Source: a virus. Taken from it: a DNA stretch of 64,000 bases. Each line of letters starts with the position of its first letter. The first letter of the stretch is position 1. A model generated the notes under the pieces. The model ran no database searches. It had not been told where the DNA came from and saw only the letters and a program-made list of their open reading frames with translations. Where the stretch lies: the IMG/VR virus record IMGVR_UViG_3300042520_002054, positions 1-64,000 of that record, one strand, 5' to 3'. This document shows, piece after piece, positions 1-54,600 of this stretch. Position numbers and translations under genes: made by a program.

Positions 1-3000
1 TCTTAGTACCACCTTGAGTCTGTAGTGTATCTACACCAACAAATCTTGTAGGTTCAGAATCTTCATATAGAATAACAGCTCCGTTTTCATTAAGCGATTT
101 GATGTTATTCACCTTACCGCCAAAATCCTTGTAGTTATTTGCTAGATAAGCTTTCCAGTTATCACGCTTAAGCTCATCTTGTTGTTGTAGAGAGTATATA
201 ACCCTGTTGGGGTAGTACTCAAAACAATCTACTGCAACCTGGGGATCATAACTTCTTGGAAGAACTTTACCCCAAGTAGTGAAATTATTATACAGTTTAG
301 AAACACTGAGTGAAAAATCATACTTGTAGTAATTACCCATAGTAATGATATCCGATCTAAACATTTCATTATAATCAGAGTACCCTTCCGGTTCAAAGTG
401 TTTCTCATGTAAAAGTTCACCGTAATCTCTAAATGCAAGGTTGATTTCAGATTCTACAAAGAAGTCTCTTACACCATTATTAAATAAATAAAAGAATGCT
501 CTTTTAAGTACAAACACACCAGTCTTGCTACTAGCTCTATCTAAATGATGAAAATCACTAGGTGTAGTAAGCTGTAAACCATTCCTAAGATTTAGTTTAA
601 TCGTAAAGTCGTTAAGATCAAATCTTTCTAAGTTTGCCCAATAACGAGGAAAAGGTCCGTTAATATAATTTTTGTAATTATACTCTGTACCGTTGTTTTC
701 ACCTAGCAACCACTGGTTAAAAAAGAAATAAGGGTTCTTCTCAGTATAACGGTTAATATAAATATCACCACCAAAGATTACACCTGTTCTATACCGGTTA
801 CCGTCAGGTTGTGTTTTAAAAACGCAGCTTTCAATTGGAATCTGTACTATTGAATCTAATTGACCATATTGGTTCTCATAGCTTAGTTTAATTGCACCAT
901 AATAAGCAGATGTAGTTCTTGTATATACATCGTTAGTAGGATCATCATGCTTATTTAAATCATGTAATCGAACGCGTGAATTATCTTTTATTGACGTATT
1001 ACCTACGTTTATATGCGGTTCTACAATGTTAGATTGTAGTTTTACAGCAACAAACTTATTTCTGAAAAGATTATTAATCTTTAAATCATCAACATATGCT
1101 TGTACAAATGGATCAATGTATCTACCAGCATTATCAGAAATTGCTCTTCTTCTATTACCCTTACTTGTAATTGGTAATGAGTTGTTATAAAAACCATGAG
1201 AGTTTACCTGTAAAGCATAATCTCTATATGGACTAAAAGCATAAATAGCTTCAAGAGATGATTGAATACCAAGAGCGCCATAATATATTAATGCTGGTGC
1301 TGCTAATAAAATACCAGCAAGTGTACCTACAGGTCTTGCTGTAATCATACTTGGTACATCAGGAATAGCTGTAGCAGTTCCTGATTCAGCTTGTGATATT
1401 TTTATTGCACCTGCACCAAGAAATGTAGCACTAATATCAGTCCTGTTTGTCGCTTTACCTAAGGCTGCAAGAACTGCTATACCAGCACCGACAATGGATG
1501 CAAATATAAAAGCACCATCTGTAATTAATTTACTTTTAGGATGCTTATATGGAAATTCAAATTTACCTTCTACACTACCATGTTCTACAGTGTATAATTC
1601 AATTGCGCCTTGTGAAAAGAAGGGTTTATTAAATGTAGTATCTGGTGAATGAAACGAGTAAATATCTTTTCTGTAAGACGCAGGTGCTAAAGAAGAATGG
1701 TCAGGTTTATTACCATTATCTTTTTTTAACTCAGTTCTTAAAAATACATTAGGATTTAAATCATTATATGGGAAATTTTGGTACAAACCCTTTTTTCCAG
1801 GTTGTCCACTTATATCATATTCCCACATGTTGTTAAAAAGTCCCTTAGCAACAATACTTCTATTACCTTCGCGAGAACCTCTTAAAATTTCATAACCTAC
1901 AATGTCTAAAATAGGATTACCATCTATATCTAAAGGATGCTGGATATTTAAAAATTCAACACCTAATACAGATATTTTAGAACCGTTATCAGAATGAATA
2001 TGACTAGTAATATTATCTGGGAATTTATGGTGTCTTATAGCTTTTCCACACAAGTCACCCCAGATATCTGGTTTATCATCTGGATACCTCTCAGTTGATT
2101 CCCAGTAACCCATTTGACCTGTAGATGTTAAAACACCACCATCAGGTAATGTTCCCGATGTAGATGTCTTAGTAGCTGTATTATAAACCTGCCAGTTTTT
2201 AGTTTCACCAGGAAGTACGTCTGTACCTGAAGCAAGTTGTGTATCAGTTGCTAAAGGTGCACGACCAGGAATATGATATGAAGCTGACCGATGACCTGTT
2301 TTATAAATCCATCTAATAAAAAAACTATAAACCTCATCTCTCATATAAGAGGTTTTATTTCCACCTCTTATATAGTAATTTGAAGGATAATCAACAGATA
2401 GCCATCTAGATTGAATTTGGTTTGCTAAAGGTTGATAGTTAAAGTCAGGTCTTGTTGTTACACCAGATCTTAATAAATATCCATTTACTTCAAATATCTT
2501 ATCACTCTTATAGTAAAGAGCATTTTGTAAAGGAATGTATGATAATGGAATTGTAACCCAAGCTTGGTCAATAAGATCCAAAACAACCTTTTTCTGACGA
2601 GTATTGTAATATCCAACACGCCTTGCAACAGTCTGCAAGTTTACTGTAGTGACCATTACAAGTTCAAATTCATCAAAACTTGTATCGATCTCATCTATAT
2701 CTATTTCAATAGATCCACCAACTCCACTGTGACTCCATAAAGATTGAACATTACTTGGTTTAAAGTAATCTGATACTCTTACACCATTTACAGAGTAAGC
2801 TATTACAGCTTGATAGGAACCATTTAAAAGTTGACCGGCACCTTTCCCCTTATTGATACGAATACAGGGTGTATCTACAATAGATTGCAAGAGGGTCTTT
2901 TCACAGTCCAACTCATCTGAATATTCAGGAACATAGCATGAAGGATCTGGGGAAAGGTTTACTCCGGTCTTTTTATAGGGTACGTTATCCAGATTTAAAT

Positions 3001-3430
3001 ATCTGTCAGGGTTTAACCCGTCTTGCCAATAAACAGAATGGGTGCAATCATAATTTTCTTTTGCAGCACCTGTAATAAGATTTGTAGTTTTAAAACCTAA
3101 GCACTTATCATTTACTACTTTGGTATACTTACACAAACCTTCATTGAATATTCCAATCTCGCTATCAATGTTATTAGTAGAAAAAACAATCCACTCACTA
3201 CCGGATTTATGAACCAAACCTATTACGGTATATGGTGCAGACGTACAGTACTTGTTAGCTTGTTCATTACCTAATACACCAACTTCACCTAAATGTGAGT
3301 TGTTTACTCCGTTACGGGCATGAGTCCACAGTCCCTCACCGACAAATAAGTCGTTGAAGTCTTTAACCATACCTTTTGTGAAGGTATTGTTTTTTTGTAG
3401 ACTACTCTTATTATCCAGCCCTTCACTCAT
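1..3430 (-). CDS. Tail stabilization/muzzle-like protein, crAss-type (partial, runs off the left edge)
   Basis: Not in the ORF track because no stop lies in the window. ATG at 3430 gives MSEGLDNKSSLQKNNTFTKGMVKDFND..., and the same frame is open at the window edge (...DTLQTQGGTK). Over 1100 aa. The N-terminal NTFTKGM.KD motif and position after the ring genes fit crAss-like tail stabilization proteins. Confidence 0.75.
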   Translation of the reverse strand, partial: MSEGLDNKSSLQKNNTFTKGMVKDFNDLFVGEGLWTHARNGVNNSHLGEVGVLGNEQANKYCTSAPYTVIGLVHKSGSEWIVFSTNNIDSEIGIFNEGLCKYTKVVNDKCLGFKTTNLITGAAKENYDCTHSVYWQDGLNPDRYLNLDNVPYKKTGVNLSPDPSCYVPEYSDELDCEKTLLQSIVDTPCIRINKGKGAGQLLNGSYQAVIAYSVNGVRVSDYFKPSNVQSLWSHSGVGGSIEIDIDEIDTSFDEFELVMVTTVNLQTVARRVGYYNTRQKKVVLDLIDQAWVTIPLSYIPLQNALYYKSDKIFEVNGYLLRSGVTTRPDFNYQPLANQIQSRWLSVDYPSNYYIRGGNKTSYMRDEVYSFFIRWIYKTGHRSASYHIPGRAPLATDTQLASGTDVLPGETKNWQVYNTATKTSTSGTLPDGGVLTSTGQMGYWESTERYPDDKPDIWGDLCGKAIRHHKFPDNITSHIHSDNGSKISVLGVEFLNIQHPLDIDGNPILDIVGYEILRGSREGNRSIVAKGLFNNMWEYDISGQPGKKGLYQNFPYNDLNPNVFLRTELKKDNGNKPDHSSLAPASYRKDIYSFHSPDTTFNKPFFSQGAIELYTVEHGSVEGKFEFPYKHPKSKLITDGAFIFASIVGAGIAVLAALGKATNRTDISATFLGAGAIKISQAESGTATAIPDVPSMITARPVGTLAGILLAAPALIYYGALGIQSSLEAIYAFSPYRDYALQVNSHGFYNNSLPITSKGNRRRAISDNAGRYIDPFVQAYVDDLKINNLFRNKFVAVKLQSNIVEPHINVGNTSIKDNSRVRLHDLNKHDDPTNDVYTRTTSAYYGAIKLSYENQYGQLDSIVQIPIESCVFKTQPDGNRYRTGVIFGGDIYINRYTEKNPYFFFNQWLLGENNGTEYNYKNYINGPFPRYWANLERFDLNDFTIKLNLRNGLQLTTPSDFHHLDRASSKTGVFVLKRAFFYLFNNGVRDFFVESEINLAFRDYGELLHEKHFEPEGYSDYNEMFRSDIITMGNYYKYDFSLSVSKLYNNFTTWGKVLPRSYDPQVAVDCFEYYPNRVIYSLQQQDELKRDNWKAYLANNYKDFGGKVNNIKSLNENGAVILYEDSEPTRFVGVDTLQTQGGTK

Positions 3431-3780
3431 AGCTTTATGTTAATTTTCTTTTTGTCTAAAAACTTATAAAGATTCTCTGTCAAATGTCCTGTTAACCAGG
3501 CTTTAGTTTCTTCATCCTCAATATATCTATCCTCGCATATACGAGTTGATAAATGAAATACCTCATGTGCTATGAGGTTATGCGATATCTGTTCTTGTAA
3601 AAGCACAAGATGATATAAGCTATTTGTATAAAAGACGCAACCATCAGCGTCTTCAATAGACCATAGCTCTTTAGTTTTACGATACGTTTTTATAGCAACC
3701 TCTTCCATTGAATCAGTTATCATAAAAACTACACTTGCATCATAAACACCTACTTTAATTTTTTTCTGTACAATGCTCAT
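3427..3780 (-). CDS. Small protein with HExxH motif (zincin-like)
   Basis: IAHEVFH motif plus a downstream EDEE; overlaps both neighbours by 4 nt. Confidence 0.5.
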   Translation of the reverse strand: MSIVQKKIKVGVYDASVVFMITDSMEEVAIKTYRKTKELWSIEDADGCVFYTNSLYHLVLLQEQISHNLIAHEVFHLSTRICEDRYIEDEETKAWLTGHLTENLYKFLDKKKINIKL

Positions 3781-28305: not shown

Positions 28306-28325
28306 ATTTCTCAAAGAACGATTTG

Positions 28326-28400
28326 TTGCGGGGGTGAGATTCGAACTCACGTAGTTTGGCTTATGAGACCAAGCTGGAACCAACTCCAGTCTACCCCGCC
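28326..28400 (-). tRNA. tRNA-Met (CAT), possibly initiator-like
   Basis: GGCGGGG...TTGGT-CTCATAA-GCCAA...GTGAG-TTCGAAT-CTCAC-CCCCGCA-A; 1:72 mismatch; CCA not encoded. Confidence 0.9.
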
Positions 28401-32255: not shown

Positions 32256-32434
32256 GAGTTCTCAAATGCCAAAACCTGTGTTTGAGCACTTCAATAACTA
32301 ATTGAAAAAAAGAATCTGCTTCATAGCTTCCAGCTGAGCATATTAGTTTGAATTTTGATTTCATTTCTCGTTGGTGTTAAAGGTTTTTTTTGTATTACTG
32401 TAATCAGGGTTACCGTAACCAGGGTTACGATAAT

Positions 32435-46529: not shown

Positions 46530-46910
46530 ATGAGTCATCCATTACATCACAGTATTAGCTCAGTTAAAAAATATGGTGGAAGTATAGAAGACTATCTACC
46601 AATACATAACTGGTTTGATGAGACTAAAGCTCATTATCCAGATATGAGACACCGTGCTTTACGTCATCACTCAGAAGGTATATTCTGGTGCGAAGAAAAG
46701 TTTGGTGTTTATATTACTAATTCAGATGGTAAAATGGTACCTGTACGTGCTATCGGTGAACAGCATTGTATGGAAGACATTGGTTTTATACCTACAATTA
46801 AAGACTATTTAGATAATATGTCTCAAATAGGTTGGATGTATAAACCCGGTGAAGGTCGTAAAATGTTAAAAACAATTACAGAAGAAAAATTAGATTATGT
46901 CAGCAACTGA
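46530..46910 (+). CDS. DUF6915-like His-rich protein
   Basis: MSHPLHHSISSVKKYGG..DY..IHNWFDETK....D.RHRALRHH..GIF...EQHC.ED.G. Confidence 0.7.
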   Translation: MSHPLHHSISSVKKYGGSIEDYLPIHNWFDETKAHYPDMRHRALRHHSEGIFWCEEKFGVYITNSDGKMVPVRAIGEQHCMEDIGFIPTIKDYLDNMSQIGWMYKPGEGRKMLKTITEEKLDYVSN

Positions 46911-48483: not shown

Positions 48484-48794
48484 TGGTACAAAAATTTCAA
48501 TTTATGAAACAATCTAAAAATTATCAGTCTTCAGCAAAACGTATTGTTTTGGGTGAAGGTGAAGTTGTAGGTCACAAGCACGTACTGGAATCACTAAAAG
48601 CGATTTCATTTACAGAAAACGGTGAAACTGAGTCATGGAATAGTATTCCATCAATTGATTTCTTGCTTGAAGGTACTGGTGTTCTTACTCATGATGAGCA
48701 TGATCGAATGGTATTTGAAAGTGGTAACTATGTTAGTTACAATCAAGTAGAATTTAACCCTTTTGACCAAACTATTTCTAGAGTATTTGATTGA
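48483..48794 (+). CDS. Small His-motif beta protein
   Basis: LGEGEVVGHKH...LTHDEHD...G.Y....QVEF. Confidence 0.65.
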   Translation: MVQKFQFMKQSKNYQSSAKRIVLGEGEVVGHKHVLESLKAISFTENGETESWNSIPSIDFLLEGTGVLTHDEHDRMVFESGNYVSYNQVEFNPFDQTISRVFD

Positions 48795-48834
48795 TTAAAA
48801 AGGGGTGGTGTAAAAGCCACCCCAATTTTAAACT

Positions 48835-49044
48835 ATGTTTGAAATTGTTAAACTATCTAAAAAGCTTACACCGCAAGAAATGGCAGATGATTACATAATC
48901 CGACACGGTGAAGCAGCATATGCTCAATTTGCAACTGTTGTTAACTTCCTAGAAGTTAGTCAAGCAACAAGCATGGAATATTTCTATGAGGTAAAAAACA
49001 TCATAAAAGAGCGACAAAGTTCTCCAAATAGAGTATATTTGTAG
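48835..49044 (+). CDS. Hypothetical protein
   Basis: ORF track. Confidence 0.6.
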   Translation: MFEIVKLSKKLTPQEMADDYIIRHGEAAYAQFATVVNFLEVSQATSMEYFYEVKNIIKERQSSPNRVYL

Positions 49045-49082
49045 ACCTTAATAATCTTTTTTGTGAAAAAATCACAATAATC

Positions 49083-49346
49083 ATGATATATAGTAATCAT
49101 ACTCCAAAACCTACTGAAATAACTATTAGTCATCACGGTACAAAAGTTACTGTAGAACTACCCTGGGATTCTAGTTTAGATGAAGTCTATAACGCGCTTC
49201 GTGGTCTTTTAATCACAGTCGGATGGTCTGATTCACAAGTTGATAGTGAAATCTTGTCTCAAGCTGAATATGTAAATGAGAAAATTTCATATAAAGAAGG
49301 TGAAGATTTACTAAACAATGAAGAAGCTTCTGACGATAATGATTAA
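49083..49346 (+). CDS. Hypothetical protein
   Basis: ORF track. Confidence 0.6.
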   Translation: MIYSNHTPKPTEITISHHGTKVTVELPWDSSLDEVYNALRGLLITVGWSDSQVDSEILSQAEYVNEKISYKEGEDLLNNEEASDDND

Positions 49347-49409
49347 AGTTTAATTTTTTTTCAATAATTGTACTAATAGTACATAATTCAGCAAAAATTT
49401 AAACCAATA

Positions 49410-49649
49410 ATGTTAAGTAATACTAACTGTCATCACTGTATTCATTCTAAAAAGAATACAGAATACAATTCCGCACATATACATTGTAAACTTTACTGGT
49501 CGTATTATAAAAAACAGAAATACTCACATCCTAAAGCAGGGGAACATGCTATAAAAAATGGATGGTGGGATTTTCCATACGACTATGATCCTATTTGGAT
49601 GGAAAACGATTGTAATCATTTTGAAGAAAAACCTAAAACAAATATTTAA
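49410..49649 (+). CDS. Small Cys/His-rich protein
   Basis: CHHC...HIHC...GWWDFP..YDP.W...C..F. Confidence 0.6.
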   Translation: MLSNTNCHHCIHSKKNTEYNSAHIHCKLYWSYYKKQKYSHPKAGEHAIKNGWWDFPYDYDPIWMENDCNHFEEKPKTNI

Positions 49650-49652
49650 GTC

Positions 49653-50081
49653 ATGAGTATCCGTGTTGCATGTAAAAAACTTCACCCTGATGCTGTTATT
49701 CCTCAATACGCAAAAGCGGGTGATGCTGGACTAGATTTAGTAGCAACTAAAATTATAAATCAAGACAACCAGCAAGTTACATATGGTACAGATTTAGCTG
49801 TAGAAATACCTGAAGGTTATGTTGGTTTAATCTTTCCTCGAAGCTCTATACGTAAGTATGAGTTATCTCTTAGTAACTCTGTAGGAGTTATTGATAGTGG
49901 ATACCGTGGGGAGATTCAAGCAACCTTTAACACCAGATTTTATGGTGAAATTGTATACAAAAAAGGTGACAAAATTGCTCAGCTTGTAATTATTCCTTAT
50001 CCCCAAATTCTAATGTATGAATCAGATGAACTCTCAGAATCAGAACGGGGAACAGGTGGTTTCGGATCAACTGGTAACTAA
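49653..50081 (+). CDS. dut: Trimeric dUTPase
   Basis: AGLDL, PRSS, GVIDSGYRGEI, IAQLV, RGTGGFGSTG. Confidence 0.97.
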   Translation: MSIRVACKKLHPDAVIPQYAKAGDAGLDLVATKIINQDNQQVTYGTDLAVEIPEGYVGLIFPRSSIRKYELSLSNSVGVIDSGYRGEIQATFNTRFYGEIVYKKGDKIAQLVIIPYPQILMYESDELSESERGTGGFGSTGN

Positions 50082-50448
50082 AGAATATACTGGACAGATA
50101 GAGATAAGAGACCTTAATATGGCTCTCTATCTCTATACTTTCCGGTACGGTAAACAGTTAATACAGGATCTTTATGTAGTTCTATCAAAGAAATTACATT
50201 GGGATAAACCAGACATTCTTGCAAGAATGATATTCTGCAGAATGGTACCACCTGAAGAACTATATTCTGATACAGGCTTTGGAATAAGCTTGGTAAGCTA
50301 TTTAAATGTAGATGTTAAAATAGTAATTAATTGTGAGCTTCAGATAGTAAGTGTATTCTCTAAAGGGAATAAAGCACCTGTATGGTCAGGAACTTTTCAA
50401 AAGTTTATTGATGAGTATACATTCCCTGAAGCTAAATTAGATTTGTAA
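50017..50448 (+). CDS. Hypothetical protein
   Basis: ORF track; overlaps the 3' end of dut. Confidence 0.55.
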   Translation: MNQMNSQNQNGEQVVSDQLVTKEYTGQIEIRDLNMALYLYTFRYGKQLIQDLYVVLSKKLHWDKPDILARMIFCRMVPPEELYSDTGFGISLVSYLNVDVKIVINCELQIVSVFSKGNKAPVWSGTFQKFIDEYTFPEAKLDL

Positions 50449-50537
50449 AATATCAGTGATTACATATCTTCGGTGAAATAATAAGTGACCACACTTGTGA
50501 TTTTGTGAGATAGTAAACTGATTTTTAACATATTACC

Positions 50538-50567
50538 GTCGCGGGTTCGAGTCCCGTCCGGTCCGCA
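50538..50567 (+). other. Putative attP core: 3' half of a bacterial tRNA-Asp gene
   Basis: GTCGCGGGTTCGAGTCCCGTCCGGTCCGCA is a T-arm plus 3' acceptor strand with no 5' half upstream; 140 nt upstream of the integrase; flanked by GTGAC/GTCAC repeats. Confidence 0.8.
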
Positions 50568-50706
50568 AAGTATTGTAAATCAATACATTGCAGTTAAAAA
50601 ATGTCACAAATATTTAAAAAATTGTGACATCAGGTGTAAATATCAGTGTAAAAAACTGGTGTGATAAAAGTGGTCACGTATAAGTAAGTCACTAATACTT
50701 ACACAT

Positions 50707-51843
50707 ATGCAGATCACTTTTATCACAAGGCACCAAAGCAAAAAGTCGGGTCTTTCAACCTTGTATGCAAGAATCAGTTTTAGCTCAGAAATTGTAGAAA
50801 TTAAACTACTATTAAAAGCAGGTCCTAACTGGAAAACAGATATAGGAATTAACACTTATTTGAATAAAGTCAGAGAAGAGTTAAATGCTATTTATTATCA
50901 AATGAGCTTAAAGTCTTTACAGATTTCTCCAAAACTTATTAAAAGCGAGTTTGCTAAAAAGACTAAAGTTTATAGTCTATTTGAAGTCTATGACACTTTT
51001 GTTACTAAAATTATTGATTCCAGAATTAAACAGAATGAAATAACTCAGGTGGTAAAAAACAAATACACCTATACTAGAAATCATTTGCAAGATTTTATAG
51101 AATGTAATTTTAGAACAAGTGATATTCCTATCAAGAATATATCACCCCTATTTGTGTCAGATTTTGAAATATTTTTAAGACAGTTTTGTAACCATAACTC
51201 AGCTCTCAAACACTTACACAGGTTAAAATCTGTTGTAATGTATTCTATCAACATTATTAAGTGTTTAGATACAAATCCGTTTGAGCAAAAAATATTAAAA
51301 TTTCAGAAGAATAACCCTGTACATCTTACAATAGATGAGATTAATAAAATAAAAAATAAAAACTTATCTGATAGACTTGACAAAGTAAGAGATGTTTTTT
51401 TATTTCAATGTTATACAGGACTATCTTATAGTGATATTAAATCATTAACTATAGATAACATTGATCTTGATAAAAAGATTATTAGAAAATATAGGGTTAA
51501 AACAAATGTAGAAAGCGTAATCTTTTTGCTAGAACCTGCCTGGAAAATACTTAATAAGTATGATTACAAGCTGCCAATACCTACTAACCAGAAAATGAAT
51601 GCTTATCTAAAAGAGATAAGTACTATTTGTTATATATCAAAATCCTTAACTACTCATACTGCACGACATAGTTTTGCAACATTGTCGTTATCCAATGAAA
51701 TACCAATTAATGTTGTGTCAAAAATGATGGGACATACATCTATCAAATACACAGAACATTATGCAAAGACTTTAGATAATGATATTATAAAACATAACGA
51801 AAAAATGTCTAATCTATTTTCTGACAAATTTGGTTTAAACTAA
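50707..51843 (+). CDS. int: Tyrosine integrase, Bacteroidota type
   Basis: N-terminal arm-binding-like LYARISF, SAM-like core, FLFQCYTGLSYSDI, R.KT, HTARHSFAT, MGHTSIKYTEHYA. Confidence 0.93.
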   Translation: MQITFITRHQSKKSGLSTLYARISFSSEIVEIKLLLKAGPNWKTDIGINTYLNKVREELNAIYYQMSLKSLQISPKLIKSEFAKKTKVYSLFEVYDTFVTKIIDSRIKQNEITQVVKNKYTYTRNHLQDFIECNFRTSDIPIKNISPLFVSDFEIFLRQFCNHNSALKHLHRLKSVVMYSINIIKCLDTNPFEQKILKFQKNNPVHLTIDEINKIKNKNLSDRLDKVRDVFLFQCYTGLSYSDIKSLTIDNIDLDKKIIRKYRVKTNVESVIFLLEPAWKILNKYDYKLPIPTNQKMNAYLKEISTICYISKSLTTHTARHSFATLSLSNEIPINVVSKMMGHTSIKYTEHYAKTLDNDIIKHNEKMSNLFSDKFGLN

Positions 51844-51847
51844 ACAA

Positions 51848-52243
51848 TTGTCTAAATTGTGTACAATTTGGATAACTAAAATGTATTTACTTATGGCGAA
51901 AAAAAAGTTAAGTGAACAGCAATTGCACAAGATGGAATCTTTGCTAAGAGAAGGTAAAACACCAGAAGATTTATCCAACTATTTTGGAATAGCAATCAGT
52001 TCTATTCACAATTATAAGCGTATGCTTAAAGAAAAAGGTATTGAGTTACCTAATATTCGTGGTCAAAGACCTAAAGGTATTGAAATACCTAGCGAATCTA
52101 TTCAAAGCTTATCAGATCATGATAAAAACTCTATTCTATTACAGAGTTATATTCATCTTATAGTCAACCGCACCGATTTTTATGTGAAAGCAAGTGCAAA
52201 AACTATCAAAGTTGATGAAAATCAAATAAGTGTTGACTTTTAA
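51848..52243 (+). CDS. HTH DNA-binding protein (repressor or directionality-factor candidate)
   Basis: GKTPEDLSNYFGIAISSIHNYKR helix-turn-helix; likely start at MAKKKL; follows the integrase. Confidence 0.65.
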   Translation: MSKLCTIWITKMYLLMAKKKLSEQQLHKMESLLREGKTPEDLSNYFGIAISSIHNYKRMLKEKGIELPNIRGQRPKGIEIPSESIQSLSDHDKNSILLQSYIHLIVNRTDFYVKASAKTIKVDENQISVDF

Positions 52244-52263
52244 ACAATATAAAAATCTAAAGG

Positions 52264-52293
52264 AAACCGGTCAAATTACTGACCGGTTTTTTT
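52264..52293 (+). terminator. Rho-independent terminator closing the integrase-HTH unit
   Basis: AAACCGGTCA-AATTAC-TGACCGGTTT-TTTT. Confidence 0.8.
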
Positions 52294-52334
52294 ATTAGCG
52301 ATATATTCCGTTTTTTGTAGAACTTAATGTATAT

Positions 52335-52667
52335 TTGTTCTACAATATGGTTAACTTAGCTGTCATAATTCTGAGAATCATGATAGTGAGTTTACCTAAT
52401 GGTAAAGTCGTTGAAATGAGTTTAGAGCAGTATCTCAGAATGACCGATGAAGATTTTCAATTCATGGTAGCTCAAAACTGGGGAGAGGAAGTTAACAATC
52501 CTTTTCATGGTTCTGTACTAGAAGATGGCGAATTCGCTGAAATTCCAATTCCTGAAACATTTGCTGAAGAAATTAGAATTGAAGATGAGTTCGAAGATCT
52601 TACCGACATCGATCCTTCTGAAAAACTCTCTGATGACGATTTCATTGACGATAACCTGGAAATATAA
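52335..52667 (+). CDS. Small acidic protein
   Basis: Likely start at MIVSLPNGK; very D/E-rich C-half. Confidence 0.65.
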   Translation: MFYNMVNLAVIILRIMIVSLPNGKVVEMSLEQYLRMTDEDFQFMVAQNWGEEVNNPFHGSVLEDGEFAEIPIPETFAEEIRIEDEFEDLTDIDPSEKLSDDDFIDDNLEI

Positions 52668-52718
52668 TAAGCTAAAAATAAAAGCTTAACAATCAATGAA
52701 AACATTGATCAGGAACTC

Positions 52719-53138
52719 TTGTCTATGATTCAACCTAAATTAAAAACTTGTGCTGGCTGCGGTGAACAAAAAGTTATATGGAAAAACTTTGAAGGAGATA
52801 AGTACTGCAAAGATTGTTGGTACCGTAAAGAAACTCCTAAGTTCCCTGCAAAGAGCAATATTAAATCTGTTTCAGATAAACGTAAACCCCTCGATGATTT
52901 ATATAGTGTTTTACGAAGAAAATTCTTATCCGAACCCGGAAGACAATGCTGTGCTGCTAAATTATCAGGTTGTCAGGGATGCGGACCAGAAATTCTTACA
53001 ATACACCATAAACGGGGACGAGGAAAATATTACCTCGACACATCTACCTGGGTTCAGTTATGTCTCAACTGTCACAAATGGGTAGAAGAGCATCCAAAAG
53101 AAGCAAAAGAATTAAACCTTTCCGAATCTAGAGTATAA
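52719..53138 (+). CDS. HNH-type/Zn-binding nuclease-like protein
   Basis: CAGC, CKDC, TIHHKRGR...LCLNCHKWVEEH. Confidence 0.7.
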   Translation: MSMIQPKLKTCAGCGEQKVIWKNFEGDKYCKDCWYRKETPKFPAKSNIKSVSDKRKPLDDLYSVLRRKFLSEPGRQCCAAKLSGCQGCGPEILTIHHKRGRGKYYLDTSTWVQLCLNCHKWVEEHPKEAKELNLSESRV

Positions 53139-53161
53139 CAATTAATTTTTAAATCAAAACT

Positions 53162-53497
53162 ATGAGAACATTTGTAGGTTATTATTGCCTTGGTGCAACA
53201 TCTAAAGAAGATGCACTTGCAGAAAAAGGATTCTGTTTGTGGTATGAAGTAAAACCAAACAGTCTTCGTCGCTTTTTAATGTTGAAATTACTTGGATTTT
53301 TCTGGGTTGACAAAACTAGAACTGTTGGTGGTAATCAAGAGTCTAATGAAAAGTCTCAGAAAAATCTGCAAACTAATCCTGGACCTAAAAAACAACGTGG
53401 TCCACGTAAACAACCTGTAGCTCTTGCACAAACTCCAGTAGAAGAAGTTCAAGATGCTCCTGTAATTAAAAGAACTCCCCGACAACCAATCAGATAA
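53162..53497 (+). CDS. Hypothetical protein
   Basis: ORF track; coupled to the helicase. Confidence 0.6.
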   Translation: MRTFVGYYCLGATSKEDALAEKGFCLWYEVKPNSLRRFLMLKLLGFFWVDKTRTVGGNQESNEKSQKNLQTNPGPKKQRGPRKQPVALAQTPVEEVQDAPVIKRTPRQPIR

Positions 53498-54600
53498 TGA
53501 ATAATCGCGAGACCATCCAGCAACAGGCTTTAGAATCTGTTGCTGGTAAAACTCGCAGCGGTCTTGGAATTTCTATGGGTGTAGGTAAAACTCTCATAGG
53601 ATTAAAACATATGAATGACTTGTATGTCAATCATGGATTGCGCAAATTCTTAGTTGTAGCACCCAAAAAGTCTATTTTTACGACTTGGGTTGATGACGCT
53701 AAGAAGTTTGCGCTTTTTCATTTAGAAGACTGTATGGAGTTTACTACATACTTAAGTCTTACTAAAAAAGATCACGCTGCGTATGATGCTATTTATCTAG
53801 ACGAATGTCACAGTCTACTTTATTCTCATGAGTTGTGGTTAGCAACTTTTGGTGGAATAATTTTAGGACTGACGGGTACACCTCCTCGTTTTAAAAACAG
53901 CGAGAAAGGGTACATGGTAGACCGCTTCTGCCCTATTGTATATACTTATATTACTGACGATGCTGTTGAAGACGGTATTTTAAATGACTATCGGATTATA
54001 ATTCATCCTATTGAGCTTTCTGATAGAAAAGATTATCTCGTTAAGACAACAAAAAAAGAATTTTACTCAAGCGAGAAAGCTAATTATGCTTACTGGTGCG
54101 AGAGAGTTCACAATGCTGTTGGTCCAAAAGATGAGCAGATTACAAGAATAATGAGAATGACTTCACTAATGGGGTATCCTGGTAAGATGCGTTATGCTAA
54201 AAGACTTCTTCAAACTATTGAAGGTAAGTGTTTAGTTTTCTGTAACACACAAGCTCAAGCGGATAGTATTTTACCAAACAGTTATCATAGTAATAACCAA
54301 TACAGTGAAGAAAATCTTATTGCATTTAAAACCGGTGAGATTGACAGATTAAGTTGTGTTCTTTCTCTTAACGAAGGTGTTAATATACCTGAACTACGAT
54401 CATGTATTATTATGCATGCTTATAGTAATGAGAGAAAAAGTACACAAAGAATAGGTCGACTATTACGTCTTAGTCCAGATGAAACAGCAACAATACATAT
54501 TCTTATGTATAAGAATACAATTGATGAAACCTGGGTTAACAAAGCATTAGAAGACTTAGATCCTACAAAAATCCAAATCTTAGAAAATACTTATGCATAA
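53497..54600 (+). CDS. Superfamily 2 (DExH) helicase
   Basis: MGVGKT, DECH, GLTGTP, LNEGVNIP, QRIGRLLR. Confidence 0.9.
   Translation: MNNRETIQQQALESVAGKTRSGLGISMGVGKTLIGLKHMNDLYVNHGLRKFLVVAPKKSIFTTWVDDAKKFALFHLEDCMEFTTYLSLTKKDHAAYDAIYLDECHSLLYSHELWLATFGGIILGLTGTPPRFKNSEKGYMVDRFCPIVYTYITDDAVEDGILNDYRIIIHPIELSDRKDYLVKTTKKEFYSSEKANYAYWCERVHNAVGPKDEQITRIMRMTSLMGYPGKMRYAKRLLQTIEGKCLVFCNTQAQADSILPNSYHSNNQYSEENLIAFKTGEIDRLSCVLSLNEGVNIPELRSCIIMHAYSNERKSTQRIGRLLRLSPDETATIHILMYKNTIDETWVNKALEDLDPTKIQILENTYA

Follow-up and report, generated by a model that had tools for sequence, protein, structure and literature searches.

The first 64,000 nucleotides of virus record IMGVR_UViG_3300042520_002054 (hereafter the window, taken from a 120,708-bp record of 35.7% GC) contain a locus in which the 3′ end of a tRNA-Asp gene lies beside a gene for a tyrosine integrase. 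This locus is read here as the phage's own working site-specific integration module, an attachment site (attP) and integrase directed to tRNA-Asp(GTC), with a probability of roughly two in three. The case is built from five elements: the anatomy of the site; an exact match to the tRNA; purifying selection on the integrase; divergence of the module in step with the phage backbone; and its loss from some relatives. An earlier note on this DNA had named a tRNA 3′ part, arm repeats, palindromes, an integrase, a helix-turn-helix (HTH) gene, and a terminator, all of which were located within one base. The carrier is a crAss-like phage in the broad sense.

The attP core

Over 29 nucleotides (nt), the core (50538..50566, plus strand) reproduces the 3′ end of tRNA-Asp(GTC) without a mismatch; the shared stretch spans the T-stem to the discriminator base, plus one C. 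A gap of 139 nt separates it from the integrase, whose ATG is at 50707. The tRNA-Asp identity proposed for the core holds: at least 120 bacterial loci contain the 28-mer 50538-50565 without a mismatch (137 occurrences in those loci), nearly all of them tRNA-Asp(GTC) genes, and the match is therefore not due to chance. In all 137 occurrences, identity to the bacterial copy begins exactly at 50538, never further upstream. In all but three of the full-length matches, the upstream bases of the bacterial copy can be read by eye as the body of a tRNA whose anticodon loop, CTGTCAC, is that of tRNA-Asp(GTC), and ARAGORN called the one bacterial copy checked tRNA-Asp(gtc). At the phage site, ARAGORN found no whole tRNA gene and no Rfam tRNA model matched in 50300-50800, so the core is a fragment rather than a gene.

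Comparison among phages places the constraint on the same bases. The non-coding region was aligned for seven sequences, and invariance was counted among five lineages. Of 283 columns, 176 do not vary; their longest unbroken stretch is the 29 nt of 50538-50566, and the next is 17 nt long. By rough arithmetic, with 62% of columns invariant, a 29-nt run would arise by chance at any one start position with a probability of about 1e-6. Across all seven phage sequences, none of the 29 bases that match the tRNA varies, while their flanks diverge. In six of the seven, identity extends to 50574, and the seventh (L144) changes one base past the tRNA end (CTAGG versus CAAAG). Conservation thus coincides with the tRNA-matching bases, as expected where a core must match a host gene.

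The earlier suggestion that the core may identify the host requires a distinction. Among the carriers listed are Chitinophagaceae, Pedobacter, Cytophagales, and many Gammaproteobacteria. Since several Bacteroidota orders and the Gammaproteobacteria all share it, the core by itself is not enough to name a host. The adjoining bases say more. After the tRNA, the phage reads CAAAG, whereas gammaproteobacterial genes read CCA. Among the 137 listed occurrences, CAAA continues 40 and CAAAG continues 8. All eight CAAAG occurrences come from Bacteroidota, six of them named Chitinophagales or Chitinophagaceae: Edaphocola flava, E. aurantiacus, Gynurincola endophyticus, a Chitinophagaceae metagenome-assembled genome (MAG), and a Chitinophagales MAG with two copies; a Bacteroidia MAG and a Bacteroidota MAG complete the set. 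On this evidence the host is most likely a freshwater member of the Chitinophagales, CAAAG being a lead and not proof.

Fragments of the same tRNA end occur elsewhere. Niabella sp. 22666 carries an orphan 34-nt tRNA-Asp 3′ fragment lacking its 5′ half (L062:4326-4359), probably the attachment scar of some other element with the same target; the intact tRNA-Asp is on another scaffold (L178), so the fragment is not tied to any element. Two gammaproteobacterial loci (L096 and L107) hold core copies that lack the tRNA 5′ part and begin at the anticodon loop, and these are likely attachment-site duplicates of unrelated elements at tRNA-Asp.

The integrase

The gene at 50707..51843 (plus strand) encodes a tyrosine integrase of 378 residues that resembles the IntCTnDOT type, with a SAM_5 core-binding domain and a catalytic domain, as assigned by Pfam, PHROG, and alignment. 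It matches PF00589 at 2.6e-16 (60.3 bits against a cut-off of 27.1), PF13102 (SAM_5) at 6.7e-10, and the PHROG integrase family phrog_1 at 6.6e-34. Among solved structures it aligns with XerA, XerC-like, IntI4, and XerD chains. Against XerA (5hxy), HTARH falls on the HxxR box, and GH...TEHY on the second His and the Tyr nucleophile.

Within its own phage clade the integrase finds homologues of 98%, 82%, and 76% identity; outside the clade, the best is 41%. Those of the 120 listed homologues that bear a name are site-specific integrases from Bacteroidota. Other homologues, at 37-39% identity, lie on contigs of about 120-124 kb (P0010 and P0013 among them); a scan of viral contigs with P0013 found nothing. 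A peptide-pattern scan of viral contigs with the integrase itself returned only 10 relatives of 30-35% identity and missed the true orthologues.

The reading frame is 378 codons long and free of stops in six of six carriers. Pairwise among four lineages, the ratio of nonsynonymous to synonymous substitution rates (dN/dS) is 0.05-0.13, with dS of 0.6-3.3; by this measure the integrase is under purifying selection. Intactness, as the earlier note had it, therefore extends from this genome to every carrier.

Presence and loss among relatives

Relatives were gathered by a scan with the neighbouring helicase (seven contigs, 91-92% protein identity) and by DNA patterns (three contigs). Ten contigs cover the site, and one further contig (L140) stops short of it. 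Six of the ten carry the whole module in the same place: L141, L142, and L145, which are near-identical; L143; L144; and the window, counted apart. One more, L139, keeps attP and has lost the integrase and most of the HTH gene. The last three (L136, L137, and L138, near-identical and thus one lineage) have only about 50 nt at the site, consisting of a palindrome that corresponds to 50601-50630 and the terminator. The boundaries between presence and absence are at 50449 and 52282.

The L139 case is the clearest. In both flanks, L139 is 98.7-99.4% identical to the integrase-bearing L143, yet it lacks about 1.5 kb between two words ATAAAA, a deletion that marks a recent loss. For the other absence, the left flank is informative: the module-less lineage shares 91% identity with the L141 and L143 groups and the integrase-bearing window just 76%, and L144 is more distant still, yet bears the module. 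From these identities, one ancestral module and two losses would be the economical reading, which recombination between phages could blur. Moreover, the module is collinear among relatives and about 75% identical at the nucleotide level, against 76% for the left flank. The module thus diverges with the backbone, as befits the phage's own property rather than a recent passenger.

L145 also has about 2.6 kb (849-3482), absent from the window, between homologues of window positions 46533 and 46525; 30 nt of this extra DNA match window 32359-32388 exactly, in the opposite orientation.

Arms and other elements of the module

The P arm (50449..50537, plus strand) is non-coding and extends from the stop codon of a 143-residue open reading frame (ORF) to the core. 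It holds the box AGTGACCAC (50484..50492, plus strand), an invariant run of nine in five lineages that is present once in the genome. Within this box, GTGACCAC occupies 50485-50492, one base from where the earlier note had put it, and is inverted across the core relative to GTGGTCAC, which is at 50670-50677 as reported. At the outer end of the arm, a repeat search identified AAATATCAGTG (50448..50458, plus strand), a candidate arm-type site with a second copy at 50638-50648. At this position the relatives read (A/T)TCAGT(G/A)TAAAAAC; their P arm has TCAGTGTAAAAAC, a direct repeat of the P′ box, which in the window has partly decayed to AAATATCAGTG.

The P′ arm (50567..50706, plus strand) reaches the integrase start. 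Its invariant blocks are TCAATAC (50580-86), TTAAAAA (50594-600), TGTCAC (50602-07), GTGTAAA (50634-40), ATCAGTGTAAAAAACTG (50642-58), and GATAAAA (50663-69). Two tandem GTGTAAA(A) boxes at 50634..50658 (plus strand), which take in the P′ copy of the direct repeat and the 17-nt invariant run, are further candidate arm-type sites. For the conserved arm boxes, a role as arm-type or accessory-factor sites is plausible.

The palindrome ATGTCACAA-N12-TTGTGACAT lies at 50601..50630, the position originally given for it, and is the only part of this region retained in module-less relatives. In L136 (6725-6775), as in L137 and L138, an ATGTCAC-N16-GTGACAT palindrome is kept between the upstream stop codon and the terminator. 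A loose form of the pattern matches twice in 64 kb, against 0.11 expected, and the other match is unrelated; as a genome-wide phage motif the palindrome was rejected, this being its sole copy in the genome.

A long hairpin (50660..50727, plus strand), identified by inverted-repeat search and folding, encloses the integrase start codon. Its predicted stability is −31 kcal/mol (z −7.0), equalled by none of 200 shuffles. It is retained in four lineages, and one pair is changed on both sides by way of a synonymous change in codon 8; most pairs are invariant, so support from covariation is thin. Translational control is possible, as is a protein-binding inverted repeat.

Downstream of the integrase, the palindrome AAATTGTGTACAATTT (51854..51869) precedes the HTH gene, as the earlier note had observed. 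It is perfect in this genome only and imperfect in three related lineages, where the conserved portion is AATTGTCTAAATTGT. The gene itself (51893..52243, plus strand; its start is an ATG common to the relatives) encodes 116 residues with a probable N-terminal helix-turn-helix. The protein is 66-73% identical in three other lineages and intact in five of five loci that reach the gene; dN/dS is 0.09-0.15 where dS could be computed, and elsewhere the comparison is saturated. It has no Pfam or PHROGs match. An AlphaFold model built from four sequences has a mean predicted local distance difference test (pLDDT) score of 69, rising to about 86 in three N-terminal helices. Foldseek against the PDB returned nothing at E <= 0.001, the weak matches being mostly HTH or winged-HTH DNA-binding domains, and Atlas leads were HTH_38, HTH_7, HTH_23, and GerE, all scored below 0.9. 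Together, model and leads point to a probable HTH protein; an excision factor or a regulator would be a guess at its role.

A terminator-like hairpin with a T-run (52264..52295) closes the module and is present also in module-less relatives. In the scan it came up on the minus strand; on the plus strand it was read by eye, with T7. Directly 3′ of it lie TTGTAGAACT (52316-52325) and its near-inverse TTGTTCTACA (52336-52345).

The phage and its habitat

The 120,708-bp record has an exact 127-nt terminal repeat and is rated complete. Its genes fall into three blocks: at 3-28 kb the minus strand encodes structural genes, at 29-73 kb the plus strand encodes early and replication genes, and at 75-120 kb the minus strand holds giant ORFs of 1,314-3,648 residues. 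PHROG profiles identify the portal (7.7e-91), DNA polymerase (5.5e-72), large terminase (TerL; 2.2e-64), and major head protein (MCP; 2e-31). Phage genes continue on both sides of the module, in agreement with the attP (excised) configuration initially proposed.

In tblastn, TerL matched 150 phage records, all below 60% identity. The 25 matches listed, at 24-27%, are crAss-like or related Bacteroidota phages (crAss-like phages of the gut, Azobacteroides phage ProJPt-Bp1, Flavobacterium phage FpV4), apart from two unannotated fecal "Bacteriophage sp." records; the matches tallied by name also take in Cellulophaga phages. Homologues of TerL, portal, and MCP, the three-block layout, and giant virion proteins together make the phage crAss-like in a broad sense. 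By its TerL, which is about 26% identical to that of Crassvirales, it is far from the cultured gut families, and the label that the earlier note had attached holds only with that latitude.

Twenty sequencing runs from 16 studies contain at least 74% of the sampled words of the stretch; 18 of the runs are labelled freshwater or lake water and two fungus metagenome. Megablast of 49000-54000 against a phage collection gave no match. Runs X11 and X14, from other studies, contain a second strain that over 48500-54000 differs by about 22-27 bases per 3.4 kb. One base is inserted behind 48796 in this strain and two are deleted at 51888, shortly before the HTH start; the strain's integrase is covered without gaps. 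Elsewhere in the window, ARAGORN places at 28325-28400 a tRNA-like gene whose "anticodon" has two bases, next to genes for tRNA-Thr and tRNA-Arg.

A distant crAss-like prophage

A bacterial genome (G995), in the order of a Chryseolinea MAG (Cytophagales), offers a distant counterpart. Its contig C9 (228,862 bp) holds bacterial genes to about 107.7 kb, including a PAS histidine kinase and a MacB/FtsX permease. There follow a 49-nt piece of a tRNA 3′ part (108,030-108,078) and an integrase (108,245-109,468) with arm-binding (PF17293, 8.1e-10), SAM_5, and catalytic domains. Past the integrase, 13 further protein matches to the present phage (14 in all) reach the contig end; eleven matches to structural and giant proteins keep this phage's order, and two matches to replication genes are swapped. 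The one other copy of the 49-nt repeat is in an intact tRNA-Arg(TCT) gene on contig C19 (14884-14958), with 14.8 kb of lower-GC DNA before it and DNA of host-like GC after it.

This region of at least 135 kb (C9:108030-228862 plus C19:1-14958; loci L155-L170), with its 49-nt direct repeat, junction integrase, and bacterial genes outside, bears the signature of a crAss-like prophage integrated in the tRNA-Arg(TCT) gene. It resembles the present phage in TerL, portal, MCP, and giant proteins, in shared content and order, in an integrase of the same Pfam make-up at the junction, and in a tRNA 3′ part as target. It differs in sequence (portal 32-33% and integrase 23% identical), in its tRNA-Arg(TCT) target and 49-nt core, in having the integrase on the other arm relative to the tRNA, and in GC (about 50% versus 36%). 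The case shows that members of the wider assemblage integrate by the tRNA route; it is not proof for this phage.

Counter-evidence and alternatives

Several observations weigh against a working module. No integrated copy of the lineage was found; the attL and attR junctions that the earlier note proposed to search for, in which the phage would be joined to a host chromosome, were not seen. A probe for attL (tRNA-Asp anticodon loop, core, and P′ arm) had no match in metagenome contigs, and a probe of the P arm plus core matched three contigs, all three being attP in phage relatives. Integrases of at least 76% identity are found only on contigs of phage size (121,703 bp or less). No close portal match exists in the sampled genomes, the best being 33% identical. 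The integrase is missing from four of the ten site-covering contigs and is thus dispensable for propagation. The Ser of its TGLSYSD motif aligns where XerA has the first catalytic Arg, and is Ser in six of six orthologues; activity would then depend on a substitute Arg, as reported for CTnDOT (PMC8138268). The Pfam arm-binding domain PF17293, borne by most integrase homologues in a large protein search, went undetected in the integrase and its nearest relatives at E up to 1. Integrase GC is 27.6%, versus 35.7% for the genome. Finally, the genome has no match to an HTH_3 or Peptidase_S24 (CI/LexA-type) repressor, other repressor types not having been searched; the attP and integrase of the earlier description are real, and its word "complete" is too strong.

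Some of these points have a context of their own. According to Smyshlyaev et al. (PMC8138268), the first catalytic Arg is weakly conserved in the IntCTnDOT subgroup of Bacteroidetes, and in the CTnDOT integrase another Arg functionally replaces the missing one. In the present integrase, an Arg 12 residues upstream of the Ser (KVRDVF), present in six of six orthologues, could substitute in the same way. The 90 N-terminal residues may be a divergent arm-binding domain.

The portal searches covered samples of each group's genomes, with matches in 1 of 401 Chitinophagales (weak), 0 of 401 Sphingobacteriales, 3 of 401 Cytophagales, 1 of 401 in a sample of the class Bacteroidia, and 1 of 381 Chitinophagaceae. 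Besides the G995 prophage, the matches are weak or non-integrated (G020:C155; G1066:C254 and C208; G1344:C32). In Logan assemblies, the phage contigs of four of four runs end at 50567 and resume at 50540/50541. The tRNA-Asp genes in those samples share 30-32 nt, which breaks the contigs at the core and leaves the junctions unreadable either way; loose ends before 50538 are tRNA-Asp bodies.

Three contigs encountered in these genomes deserve mention. G962:C171 (92,574 bp; L171-L175), in a Cytophagales genome, has crAss-like genes throughout at about 60% GC, with no integrase match and no clear host genes, and could represent either a phage caught in the bin or a piece of a prophage. G1705:C13 (23,204 bp; L184-L185) is an all-phage contig of crAss-like structural genes, 26-32% GC, binned with a Chitinophagaceae genome; its binning is a weak host hint for this phage group. 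The portal-like frame in G1344:C32 (6067-8436; L180, L181) has one in-frame TAA within the match, and could be a broken gene or contain a recoded stop.

Could the module be a decaying relic, functional once and now being lost, kept by inertia in a phage that is effectively virulent? Loss of the integrase in two independent events speaks for this, as do the missing prophage and the undetected repressor. A relic, however, would gather stops, frameshifts, and core changes, and here the frames are intact in all six carriers, dN/dS is low at saturated dS, and the core has stayed invariant as its flanks diverged; decay is accordingly judged unlikely. A different function for the recombinase, in resolving multimers during replication or in a plasmid state, or in inverting a segment of the phage's own genome, would leave the tRNA-like core as a historical leftover. 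Prototypic crAssphage is reported to be a non-integrating phage-plasmid (PMC10983915), a palindrome adjoins the core, and the failure to find an integrated form fits here too. Yet a resolution site need not match a host tRNA, and what is conserved is exactly the tRNA-matching bases; the palindrome persists in relatives that have no recombinase; and inversion lacks a second site. Such a role is quite improbable.

Least of all do the data favor a small bacterial integrative element, composed of the integrase, the HTH gene, and an attachment site, that moves for itself; this is very unlikely. It would account for a module present in some close relatives and absent from others with defined boundaries, for a GC below that of the backbone, and for the wide distribution in Bacteroidota of the nearest integrases outside the clade (35-41% identity). 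The earlier note had named a second nearby core copy as the mark of such a passenger; none exists in the 120,708-bp genome, even with up to three mismatches allowed to the 30-mer 50538-50567, and no flanking direct repeat longer than 11 nt surrounds the module. Its position is the same in six of six carriers, its divergence equals that of the flanks, and close relatives of the integrase are confined to phage-sized contigs. Moreover, the module-less form retains the internal palindrome, which fits a deletion and not an empty target site. Real and phage-owned, the module is maintained by selection in a pattern that can be understood only where the core has to match the tRNA-Asp gene of a host, and the reading of a working attP-integrase pair is preferred.

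A model for integration

From this anatomy we infer integration itself, a host, and roles for the arms, the HTH protein, and the hairpin. By this model the phage can probably integrate into the host chromosome. The genome would circularize, and the integrase, a Bacteroidota tyrosine recombinase of IntCTnDOT type that has Ser where the first catalytic Arg is expected, would carry out recombination between the 29-nt core (50538-50566) and its exact counterpart at the 3′ end of the host tRNA-Asp(GTC) gene. The conserved arm boxes would probably bind the integrase and accessory proteins. Every base of the displaced tRNA end has its equal in the core, so that one junction would retain an intact tRNA. 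The prophage would then run from tRNA-Asp through the integrase and HTH genes, the replication genes, and the giant virion genes, and on through the structural and the early genes to a tRNA fragment of 29 nt. The small HTH protein is a candidate for a role in excision or regulation, and the stable hairpin over the start codon would probably keep integrase synthesis low.

A broader version of this model is more tentative, and falls somewhat short of an even chance. In it the clade would be truly temperate, lysogenizing Chitinophagales at tRNA-Asp with an ancestral module; integrase-bearing (temperate) and integrase-deleted (obligately lytic) forms, with 99% identity in the rest of their sequence, would circulate together in lakes; and the hairpin would be the integrase switch.

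Relation to known systems

Phages P4, P22, HP1, and mycobacteriophage L5 have classical attP sites that contain a tRNA 3′ end; such sites were reportedly the subject of a review by Williams in 2002. The present site is like these in a core that is a tRNA 3′ end (the tRNA would be restored), an adjoining integrase, and repeats in both arms. It is unlike them in its crAss-like carrier, which has no recognizable excisionase or repressor.

The integrase is like the IntCTnDOT subgroup (CTnDOT IntDOT, NBU1 IntN1), as described in PMC8138268, in having a SAM_5-type and then a catalytic domain, Bacteroidota relatives, and a missing first Arg. It differs in having 378 residues, against about 400-415 for most of the matches, and no detected PF17293, and its gene resides in a 121-kb phage rather than in a conjugative or mobilizable element. 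Temperate Bacteroidales phages also offer comparisons: LoVEphage, whose integrase is 39.5% identical in its C-terminal part (44% of the query), and Bacteroides phage BS-TP2 (30.9% over 84%). Both are unrelated, smaller gut phages of 57-72 kb.

Published accounts of crAss-like phages give integration little place. Prototypic crAssphage is described as having no integration genes and as persisting without integration, as a phage-plasmid, and lysogeny in Crassvirales is called rare (PMC10983915); elsewhere, crAss-like phages are termed incapable of lysogeny (PMC8375218). Integrases are noted in a subset (PMC9980608, citing Yutin 2021); the word "integrase" is absent from the main text of Yutin 2021. 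The Epsilon crAss-like phages, according to PMC11054128, have genes for repressors and anti-repressors, and Parabacteroides holds related prophages that are incomplete; its authors found no integrase. They are like the present phage in being a crAss-like lineage with temperate signs; they differ in that here an integrase and attP are present and the repressor is unrecognized. Literature searches yielded no description of a tRNA-Asp attP or integrase module in a freshwater crAss-like phage; supplements may list crAss-like integrases.

Implications

The mechanism proposed here is that of the textbook; its carrier group is what is unusual, set against the published picture of crAss-like phages. 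For a phage clade that is uncultured, the result offers a lead to the host. The attP-integrase pair, conserved and under selection in a phage abundant in lakes, is a directly testable case, and so are the natural integrase-minus sister genomes and the distant chromosomal crAss-like prophage. If the broader model is true, then together with the prophage at tRNA-Arg it would make integration an old and repeatedly lost trait of crAss-like phages, and not a foreign exception.

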